This document shows positions 31,190-60,474 of a DNA stretch of 64,000 nucleotides, piece by piece. The position numbers were made by a program, and so were the translations under genes. Source of the DNA: Cladosporium halotolerans. Its lineage: Eukaryota. A model generated the notes under the pieces. That model was not told where the DNA came from. It was given only the letters and a program-made list of their open reading frames with translations, and searched no databases. Position 1 is the stretch's first letter. Each line of letters opens with the position of its first letter. The stretch is from assembly GCF_011745625.1 (NCBI RefSeq), contig NW_027191453.1, forward strand, positions 558,001 to 622,000, written 5' to 3'.

Positions 31190-32349
31190 TTAATTTAAAA
31201 GACGGCCGTCAATGAACATCTTGATATCGTCGAGCGCTTTTTGCGTCTCTTCCGTGCCTCCAACAGGAAAGAACACAAATCCGTGAGGTGCACCTAGGAA
31301 GATCTCGTTAGCTCCGCGAGAAATTGAGTCCACTTTATTTCGACATACCTGGGTAGAGCTTCAAAACGGCCTCCGCACCGCTCATGGTCCACTTTGTCGC
31401 CATCAAAACAGAGTCGTCAAGCAACGGATCGAGGGTTCCGCAGGTGAAGATGGCAGGAGGACACTTCAACTTCTTCATATGGGCAAAGAAAGGCGAGATG
31501 TCAGGGTCGCGTCTCTCGGCTTCGCTGCGATTGGGTAAATATGCCGCGATGTAACTGCGAGTGTCAATATATAATCCTGATCATGGTAGGGAGTGCAACA
31601 CGCACTGGTCCATAATATCCCTTGTCAGAATGAGGGGCATATCGAAGTGGTGCACGTGTGGTAGGAACGCTGCAAGGTCGAAGCAACCGAAGTTCAGCAC
31701 CAAGCCTTTGAACTCGAATTGTGGTCTCGATTTCAAGAGCCGGAAGCAAGTCACGACACTGAGGTGGCCTCCGGCTGAGTCGCCACCCATGAATGCCAGC
31801 GGGGCGCCATATTCCTTTTGTGCGTGATCAACCAGCCAGGCGGCGATGTCTTCGCAGTCGTCGTTACCCGCAGGATAGGGATCCTCAGGAGCCAAGCGGT
31901 AGCCAACGCTGACGACTGTAAGCTGGCAGTTCTGGGCGATCCAGTTGAGCATCAAGTCTTGGTAATGTTCCGATTGCAAGACCCAGCCGCCGCCATGGAT
32001 ATGAAGAAAGACTGCTTTTGGGCTACCAGCATCAGGAGTGAATACGCGACAAGGGACCTCGCGGTCGGCCTCTCGAGACGGTAGATTGATATTCTTGCCG
32101 GAGTCCACGACGGCAGGCTTAGGACACGGCGTCTCGCCATCCCATCGCATCTGGCGATACTTTTCAGGTCCAACCTGAGGGCCGTCAACAATAGATTCAT
32201 ACAAAATTAACAAATGTACAAACCTCCCACCATCTCGGCCCATTACGGCCGAGCTCAATCAGAGACTCATTCAGAGCATTGGTTTTTTGCGAGATGGCAT
32301 TGGAGTCAAGTGCAGAAGTGTCAAGTGCAAGGTCGGATTGCAAAGGCAT
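31190..32349 (-). CDS. Abhydrolase_3 (HSL-family) esterase/lipase
   Basis: MPLQSDLALD start; HIHGGGW, GYRLAPE, GDSAGG, DPLLDDS and PHGF. Three GT-AG introns near 32176-32223, 31554-31603 and 31295-31347; stop TAA at 31190-31192. Confidence 0.9.
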
Positions 32350-58789: not shown

Positions 58790-60457
58790 ATGGCGTCTAC
58801 CGACATTTCTCTCGAGCATGCCTCTTCACCTCCACCCACTCTGCGCCGCGTATGGACGGCCCACATTCCACCCGTGAAGTCTCAGTACAAGCCGTTGAAG
58901 ACCTCGACCGAACTCTACTGCGCTCTTTTCGCCTTGCAATTCTCCAACATGATGTGCTTCATCGACTCCATGGCCGCTCCGCCAATGATGTCCACGCTCT
59001 CTAAAGCTCTGAATTGCGGTGCTACGATCGTCTAGGCGGCCATCGCCGGCTCGGTTGGCGGCGTCATTGGCATGATCATCACAGGCTACCTCAGCGACCA
59101 ACTCGGAAGGCGCTACATGCTACTGACGAGCTACACATCCTTGATCGGCATTGCCATCGCAACGGGGTTCGTGCAGCGCGACGTCGAGCTCTTCATCGTC
59201 CGCGGACTGAATGGCCTCGTCTCTGGAGCCATCGGCACTCTCGTGAGCGCCGCTCTCAGTGACTACACCCCACTAGGCACGAGAGGCAAGTACCAAGGCC
59301 TTCAAGGAATCACAATCCTCGTCGGCGGCCCTCTCGGGATGATTGGCGGCGCTGCCCTCGCATTAAAAGGCCAATGGCGCATTCTCTTCTAGGGAATCGA
59401 AGCGCCGTTCGCCGTAATCTCTCTCGTCTCAACCTACCTCTGGTGCCCTGCGACCATCCCACCTCCCACTCGACAGGAGCTCCTGGCAATCCTCAAAACC
59501 ATCGACTACGCAGGAATCGTCACCTTCTGTGCCGCCGTCGTCAGCGGCCTGATCGTCGCCTCCCAAGCCGGCCGCCAATGGCCCGTCAACGACCCTCGCA
59601 TCATCGCCCTGCTCGCCCTCTGCGGCATCTCCTCCCTCGCCTTCCTCGCCCTCGGCCTCAAATACCGCCGCATCCGGCCCGTGATCCCCTTCCGCATCTT
59701 CCGCAACGCCACCGTCTCCATCGTCCTGCTCCAGCAATTCCTCATGGGCGCCGTCTACTGGGCCTTCCTCTACTTCATCCCTTCCTACCTCCAAATCGCC
59801 CACGGCATGAACCCCCTGCGCGCCGCCGCCCACATGCTGCCCTGGCTGCTCCCGCACGGCGTCTGGATGACCCTCTCCGGCCTCGTCATGACCTGGCGCT
59901 GGCCCTTGCGCTGGCCCGCCCGCAAGAAGCAGGTCTCCTACGGGCCCATGATGTGGCTCGGCTACGCCTGCCTGGCCCTCGCCTGCGCGGGCATCGCCTG
60001 CGCGCGCGACGTCGCCGGGCTCGTCGGGCTCGAGGTCGTCTTCGCGCTCGGCACGGGCGCGGTCTTCCAGAACTCCGTCGCCGTCTTGCAGTCGCACACG
60101 GAGCAGGACGAGACGGCCGTCGTGCTGGGCGTGCGCAGCATGGTGCGCGGCGTCGGGGGCTCGATTGGGTCGGCCGTGGGCACGGTGATCATTGGCGCTG
60201 TGCTGGGGGAGTATTTGCCGGAGCGGTGGAAGGGGTTGAAGAGCTCGGCGTTTTCGAAGCCGCCGTTTGCGCGCATGACGGCGGACGAGGCGCGGCTGAC
60301 GGTCGGCTCGTTTGAGCATGCGATCGCGTGGGTGTTCGTGGCGTGCGCGGGCGCGATGGTGTTGAGTTTCGCGCTGTGCGTGTTTATTGCGGATCATGGA
60401 TTGGAGAGGCCGGATATCAAGGAGAAGGAGCGGAGGATGTCTGCGGAGCATATGTAG
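58790..60457 (+). pseudogene. DHA2/EmrB-QacA-type MFS transporter interrupted by two in-frame TAG codons (pseudogene or recoded gene)
   Basis: ORFs 58790-59035, 59072-59392 and 59681-60457 share one frame. The only stops are TAG at 59033-59035 and 59390-59392. Motifs GYLSDQLGRR, RGKYQG, IDYAG, PVIPFRIF, YFIPSYLQ and RGVGGSIG. Confidence 0.85.
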
Positions 60458-60474
60458 TTTTTTTTTTTTTTTTT
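60458..60474 (+). repeat. T17 homopolymer directly after the MFS stop codon
   Basis: Read directly. Confidence 0.9.

Follow-up and report, generated by a model that had tools for sequence, protein, structure and literature searches.

Programmed readthrough at UGA-CU(A) is a known means by which fungi pass a stop codon, and it yields peroxisomal isoforms. Fungal stop codons may also be removed from the message itself: in Fusarium graminearum and Neurospora crassa, premature stop codon (PSC, or 'PUK1-like') pseudogenes carry a premature UAG, which becomes UGG by editing in perithecia (PMC4817773, PMC10776026). For Fusarium and Neurospora, 71 'pseudogenes' with such stops have been described, whose TAGs derive mostly from TGG, recur independently at equivalent sites and are maintained by selection (PMC10776026). 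One protein that contains a domain of the major facilitator superfamily (MFS), AMD1 (FGRRES_10094) of F. graminearum, requires UAG-to-UGG editing (PMC5496914). Here we describe a DHA2-type MFS transporter gene with two in-frame TAG codons, located in a 64,000-nucleotide stretch of fungal DNA (positions 558,001 to 622,000 of contig NW_027191453.1; hereafter the window). Comparison with its relatives argues that the first of these codons, codon 82, is functional and decoded, a conclusion that is far more certain than editing as the mechanism of decoding.

When read in one frame, positions 58790-60457 of the forward strand comprise 555 codons and a terminator, intronless, with zero frameshifts and exactly two internal stops, codons 82 and 201, both TAG and both in the identical context tcTAGg. 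Orthologues align with this frame end to end, and both protein termini match theirs, from M1 to ...MSAEH(M/L/I)-stop. The true terminator is a TAG at 60455-60457 (+), where the C-terminus ...MSAEHM is aligned with orthologue ends formed by TAA, TGA or TAG; among the full-length genes, window and relatives together, the terminators are TAG, TAA, TGA, TAG, TAA and TGA. A run of 16 T (60458-60473, +) lies directly after the terminator in the window. Because the protein alignment is unbroken across both internal stops, no plausible intron removes either of them. Re-translation and orthologue alignment thus confirmed the preliminary description of the locus, which had reported a single 555-codon frame with complete termini and only these two internal TAGs. 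Translation through both stops gives a protein that matches Pfam MFS_1 over residues 51-460 (E=1.7e-30; 106.6 bits against a cut-off of 33.4), Sugar_tr, and TRI12 (PF06609) over residues 83-321 (3e-06; 26.4 bits against 23.2), and the profile scores place it in the DHA2/TRI12-type MFS family above the curated cut-off. The family possesses a conserved Trp in the second helix and a WRxxF(Y/F/W) motif. Local GC content is 0.59-0.68, and GC at third codon positions (GC3) is 0.71-0.81 in the flanks of codon 201. The gene and its flanks lack AT-rich erosion of the kind left by repeat-induced point mutation (RIP), as had been noted from the sequence at the outset.

Relatives of the transporter were searched for in a collection of 5.8 billion proteins. 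The nearest were six unnamed metagenome clusters with 58-66% identity; the best named protein, from Cyberlindnera, was only 26% identical, and the relatives are EmrB/QacA-type transporters. All six close clusters begin 10-28 residues past codon 82, the result to be expected of a prokaryote-style open reading frame (ORF) caller that meets a stop. A scan of metagenome DNA with the single protein returned nothing, and a scan with the alignment of relatives returned twelve loci (L001-L012): five full-length genes (L001-L005), two N-terminal pieces (L007 and L010), three C-terminal pieces, and two paralogues of 30% identity. The seven metagenome loci that cover codon 82 share about 64% protein identity with the window transporter. 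At the DNA level L001 and L004 are 87% identical, as are L002 and L003, with 78% identity between the two pairs; L002 and L005 are 99.9% identical. The loci are syntenic among themselves, and the neighbours of the transporter in the window, a UTP18-like gene and a gene for a large PH-type protein, are not adjacent to the transporter in L001-L012. Orthology of the window gene to these loci is therefore argued from sequence similarity, since synteny with the window is absent.

The first in-frame TAG (59033-59035, +; atcgtcTAGgcggcc) sits inside a conserved motif, where it substitutes for Trp. It is present in all eight loci that cover the codon, namely the window, L001-L005, L007 and L010, which represent at least five lineages given the near identity of L002 and L005; with the protein clusters included, the lineage count is at least ten. 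Trp occupies this near-invariant site in 93 of 95 aligned family members (102 relatives, seven rows being gapped), and also in the 30% paralogue L012 and in the Cyberlindnera protein (P0008). The two paralogues, L011 and L012, come from other metagenome records and show an ordinary Trp (…ATINWATT…) where the TAG is conserved. The earlier expectation of a Trp at the first stop was thus borne out, and a survey of TAG conservation in relatives, proposed at the same time, gave eight of eight loci. The thirteen codons immediately after the TAG (59036-59074, +), which precede the first downstream Met of the relatives, evolve as coding sequence: L001 and L004 differ there by four synonymous and no nonsynonymous changes, and L002 and L003 by three synonymous and one nonsynonymous, a total of 7:1. 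Translation therefore appears to pass through the stop rather than to restart at a downstream Met. A TAG maintained in evolution at the place of a Trp, within a frame that is translated, has to be decoded.

Selection on the two parts of the gene was compared by Nei-Gojobori dN/dS (NG86) upstream and downstream of codon 82. Between L001 and L004 the ratios were 0.089 upstream and 0.057 downstream (dS 0.57), between L002 and L003 0.081 and 0.076 (dS 0.53), and between L001 and L002 0.20 and 0.12 (dS 1.0); for the window against the others they were 0.16-0.20 and 0.27-0.32, with dS saturated. The downstream ratio had been put forward in the preliminary description as a check on decay, and the values (0.06-0.32) proved to be well below 1 on both sides. 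A dip in synonymous change around codon 82 was looked for and not found (0.37 against 0.42 overall). Judged by these sequence comparisons, the MFS gene is not a decaying pseudogene.

Contigs from four other sequencing runs (X6, X1, X2 and X7), 2-3% divergent from the window, span both TAGs. Among the 19 differences listed of 20 in the spanning contig of X6 none falls at 59034 or 59391, the middle positions of the two stops, and among the 40 difference rows listed of 112 for the four runs together none falls there either; these contigs are of uncertain kind and silent on expression or editing. Run X2 yielded two contig variants at 59023-59251 (4 and 10 differences) and at 59800-60060 (2 and 16 differences), so that there are two strains or haplotypes in its single sample.

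A chance control was drawn from the window itself and comprised 137 single in-frame stops, each flanked in both directions by 60 or more open codons. Pfam was run over 109 of these (37 TAG and 72 TGA), the 28 TAA being left out. A match crossed the stop in three of the 109: the two MFS TAGs and one TGA, which lies inside an ordinary 51-nt in-frame GT..AG intron of an Abhydrolase_3 gene (31558-31608, -). By this test no further stop-interrupted candidate was found among the 109 stops of the window. A crude GC3 filter for stop-interrupted genes was discarded in favour of the Pfam test, as it was too strict and lost the site at 59033.

A second gene with a conserved TAG lies directly upstream of the MFS gene in L001, L002, L003 and L005, and encodes an NDR/Cbk1-like kinase (L001:3-2669, L002:1-2475, L003:1-2463, L005:1-2475). 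One in-frame TAG within its kinase domain (…EDVAK-TAG-YVAEM…; at L001:1290, L002:1066 and L003:1054) is kept in all four loci. The dN/dS ratio is 0.04-0.08 on both sides of this TAG, with dS above 2 between clades, and of 120 homologues examined the 89 with the motif have Trp (86) or Phe (3) at the site. Among kinase protein clusters from metagenomes, sixteen start just past the TAG and one stops at it. In addition, nine public kinase models from eight named species of Capnodiales sensu lato (s.l.) leave out, wholly or in part, the catalytic-loop region surrounding the Trp/TAG codon (P0228, P0242, P0244, P0246, P0263, P0268, P0299, P0301 and P0304; the species are Zymoseptoria tritici, Dothistroma septosporum, Zasmidium cellare with two models, Teratosphaeria nubilosa, Baudoinia panamericana, Cryoendolithus antarcticus, Polychaeton citri and Neohortaea acidophila). 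Four of the nine read …VA(R/K)-Y-(A/S)-(S/T)-GHLK. As far as protein models can tell, the skipped regions look like false introns that would splice TA|G-TAY-GT to …ATC-AG|C around a TAG. The kinase was also considered as an orthologue of PUK1; judged by motif this is unlikely, the arrangement here being K-TAG-Y against the tandem UAG-UAG or UAG-UGG described for PUK1 (PMC4817773).

The second in-frame TAG of the transporter, codon 201 (59390-59392, +; ctcttcTAGggaatc), has a different history. It was seen only in the lineage of the window: the codon is TAC in L001 and L004 and TTC in L002, L003 and L005, and Trp is found in the protein clusters P0005-P0007. Across 102 relatives the site is Tyr in 76, Phe in 14, Trp in five, Leu in five, Ile in one and a gap in one. 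The preliminary description had taken both stops for TGG-to-TAG changes at probable Trp sites, and this view held for codon 82 and was not borne out for codon 201, where relatives have mostly Tyr or Phe and Trp occurs in three close lineages. The TAG at codon 201 may have arisen recently by mutation, in a gene already dependent on recoding. It stands at the tip of a stable local RNA hairpin (59369-59413, +), whose 3-nt loop is closed by the A of this stop; the 61-nt fold has a predicted energy of -23.2 kcal/mol (z -4.30), and none of 200 shuffled sequences folds as well. A strain variant in X6, X1 and X2, G to A at 59407, replaces a U-G pair in the outer stem by U-A. A further internal TAG occurs among the relatives at alignment column 287, where the codon is TAG in L002, L003 and L005, TGG in L001 and L004, and GCC in the window.

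Two of the explanations considered dispense with recoding. Were the gene a plain pseudogene, its stops would be nonsense mutations, possibly RIP-like CpA-to-TpA changes, or assembly errors. TGG to TAG is indeed the RIP-type change on the opposite strand, and the second TAG was seen only in the lineage of the window; yet the codon-82 TAG is shared by eight of eight loci across dS greater than 1, with dN/dS of 0.06-0.3, no frameshift and no other stop, GC content is free of AT-rich erosion, and the contigs of four divergent runs cover both sites. This explanation is hardly credible for the gene, and for codon 82 it is refuted by the conservation of the TAG across lineages together with the low dN/dS; the alternative of recent RIP or decay, raised when the locus was first described, is thereby excluded for that codon. 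Equally free of recoding is split expression, in which the first 81 codons would make a small membrane peptide and the remainder would be translated from a downstream AUG. Purifying selection on both parts and the long ORF that ORF callers give from the next Met would both be expected under such an arrangement. What makes it very improbable is that the codons between the TAG and that Met evolve as coding sequence, that both parts lie in one frame in all loci, and that the stop takes the place of a Trp inside a conserved motif; the TAGs at codons 201 and 287 and in the kinase domain would moreover be left unexplained.

If the stop is decoded, the message may keep its UAG, with some ribosomes inserting a near-cognate residue to give a low and perhaps regulated output of full-length protein. 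Such programmed readthrough accounts equally well for a conserved stop that is flanked on either side by purifying selection, and a G follows the stop at two of the four TAG sites. The motifs known to promote readthrough are UGA-CUA and UAG-CARYYA, however, and these leaky contexts are absent here: the stops are UAG, and the next bases are GCGGCC, GGAATC, TCCGGG and TACGTG, none of which fits CARYYA. Conserved downstream structure was looked for at codon 82 and not found. When UAG is read by near-cognate tRNAs in yeast, the residue inserted is Gln, Tyr or Lys and not Trp. Against this, the alignments have Trp columns at three of the four sites and a Gln or Lys column at none, and a pair of successive stops would compound the loss of product. 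Taking both sides into account, we regard readthrough as unlikely, although clearly less so than the explanations above. Trp, as the alignments demand, and specificity for TAG would follow directly if a dedicated or conditional tRNA, such as a tRNA-Trp with anticodon CUA, decoded the stop. Against this, TAG must be a working terminator, because both the MFS gene of the window and its L003 orthologue use it to end at the conserved C-terminus, and because it follows the complete PIG-X domain of another gene in the window. Neither the 64-kb window nor any of the loci L001-L010 contains a tRNA gene, and we know of no fungus for which a tRNA-Trp reading UAG has been described. A UAG-reading tRNA therefore seems a far-fetched explanation.

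On balance we consider conditional adenosine-to-inosine (A-to-I) editing of the mRNA, from UAG to UGG, to be the probable decoding mechanism, if by no wide measure. The gene would encode a working DHA2-type MFS transporter that is 'locked' by UAG at tryptophan or aromatic positions, so that translation of the unedited message would yield no more than a peptide of 81 residues. In a specific situation, which by analogy would be the sexual stage, an adenosine deaminase would convert the A of the UAG to inosine, and the edited codon would be read as UGG (Trp), allowing the full 555-residue transporter to be made. The A-to-I route, the insertion of Trp and the stage specificity are each inferred from the Fusarium and Neurospora systems. 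The four independent internal stop sites (codons 82 and 201, column 287 and the kinase site) are all TAG and never TGA or TAA, and relatives have Trp at three of them, near-invariantly at two. The main determinant of fungal editing is a U at -1 (PMC11156358, PMC9600606), with A or G also preferred at +1 and +3 (PMC11156358). The U at -1 and a G at +1 are inherent to TAG, and the +3 base is C at codon 82, G at codon 201, C at column 287 and A at the kinase site. Fungal editing also prefers stable hairpin loops (PMC4817773), such as that predicted at codon 201. The preliminary description had proposed a conditionally expressed gene restored by A-to-I editing; the comparative evidence (Trp at the site, conservation of the TAG, dN/dS and the second gene) went in its favour, while the mechanism is still argued by analogy.

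Several observations weigh against editing. The preferred A or G at +3 occurs at only two of the four sites. RNA structure is not significant at column 287 or at the kinase TAG, and folding around codon 82 gave z scores of +0.27, -2.32, +0.67 and +0.93, with none of 14 predicted pairs covarying. A candidate codon-82 hairpin, suggested by ATY/GCM co-variation between two clades (a C·C mismatch against a U-A pair), was rejected because it reflects a single event and is unsupported by RNAalifold. With Tyr or Phe in most relatives, site 201 has no need of a Trp. Among the one-step neighbours of TAG the share of TGG is 12%, and among its transition neighbours 46%, so that the bias towards Trp at TAG sites is only moderately improbable and of limited weight. 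Among the sequencing runs in which the gene was found, none is on record as RNA, the 18 labels reading 'RNA?' being guesses. Many Cladosporium-like fungi have, to our knowledge, no known sexual stage. The host lineage also lies outside the classes in which editing is documented, Sordariomycetes and Pezizomycetes, and editing in a Dothideomycete would need its own origin, because the published machinery is placed in those other classes.

The placement of the host derives from neighbouring genes. The best named matches of the UTP18-like gene in the window are all Dothideomycetes of the Capnodiales s.l., with Meristemomyces at 76% and Rachicladosporium at 75% identity, and Hortaea, Dothistroma and others also represented; the kinase of the metagenome lineage is closest to that of Cladosporium fusiforme (74%). 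According to published work, the Tad2-Tad3-Ame1 editing complex arose in Sordariomycetes and editing originated independently in Pezizomycetes (PMC11087585, PMC11156358, PMC13431901); two of these reports state that no editing was found in either Aspergillus nidulans or Botrytis (PMC11087585, PMC11156358). Stops at some PSC sites also occur in other fungal classes, whose A-to-I editing status is undetermined (PMC10776026). A literature search of PMC and bioRxiv, which did not cover subscription journals, returned no report of mRNA editing or of conserved premature TAGs in Dothideomycetes. It is possible, though we would stop short of calling it probable, that Capnodiales s.l. possess a conditional A-to-I editing system of their own, evolved apart from Tad2-Tad3-Ame1, whose targets, unlocked through UAG conserved at invariant tryptophans, would include at least a DHA2 transporter and an NDR-type kinase. 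The group concerned would include Cladosporium-like moulds and, from the gene models, probably Zymoseptoria, Dothistroma and Zasmidium.

Two unrelated Dothideomycete genes thus keep TAG at near-invariant Trp sites over saturated synonymous divergence, and this conservation matches the genomic footprint of restorative editing in Fusarium. What appears to be new is a footprint of the editing type, read from DNA and protein comparisons, in a class for which no such mechanism has been established and from which, by published accounts, the known machinery is missing. If confirmed, it would point to a third origin of fungal mRNA editing, or to one much older than supposed. These findings also flag a systematic annotation error, in that such genes are missing from public gene sets, truncated, or given false introns.

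The closest parallel is with the PSC genes. Like these, the genes described here have an ORF that is under selection and intact apart from an in-frame TAG, TGG in relatives and the same stop site across species, as well as independent TAGs at other Trp sites within the family and automated models that are truncated or contain false introns. They differ in their Dothideomycete host (Capnodiales s.l.) and in being known from DNA alone, and among the PSC genes no orthologue of the window gene was identified. The transporter resembles AMD1 in being a membrane protein with an MFS domain, and the single premature UAG of AMD1 was likewise hidden from annotation, in its case within a wrongly predicted intron; AMD1, however, has 1386 residues, 11 transmembrane helices and an MFS domain at 618-840, in contrast to the 555-residue DHA2-type protein of the window, and the two are not orthologous (PMC5496914). 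With readthrough at UGA-CU(A) the locus shares a conserved stop beyond which lies a conserved peptide, made only if the stop is passed. In that system the stops are UGA terminators with short extensions and a defined 3′ context, whereas here they are UAG codons at Trp sites inside transmembrane and catalytic cores.
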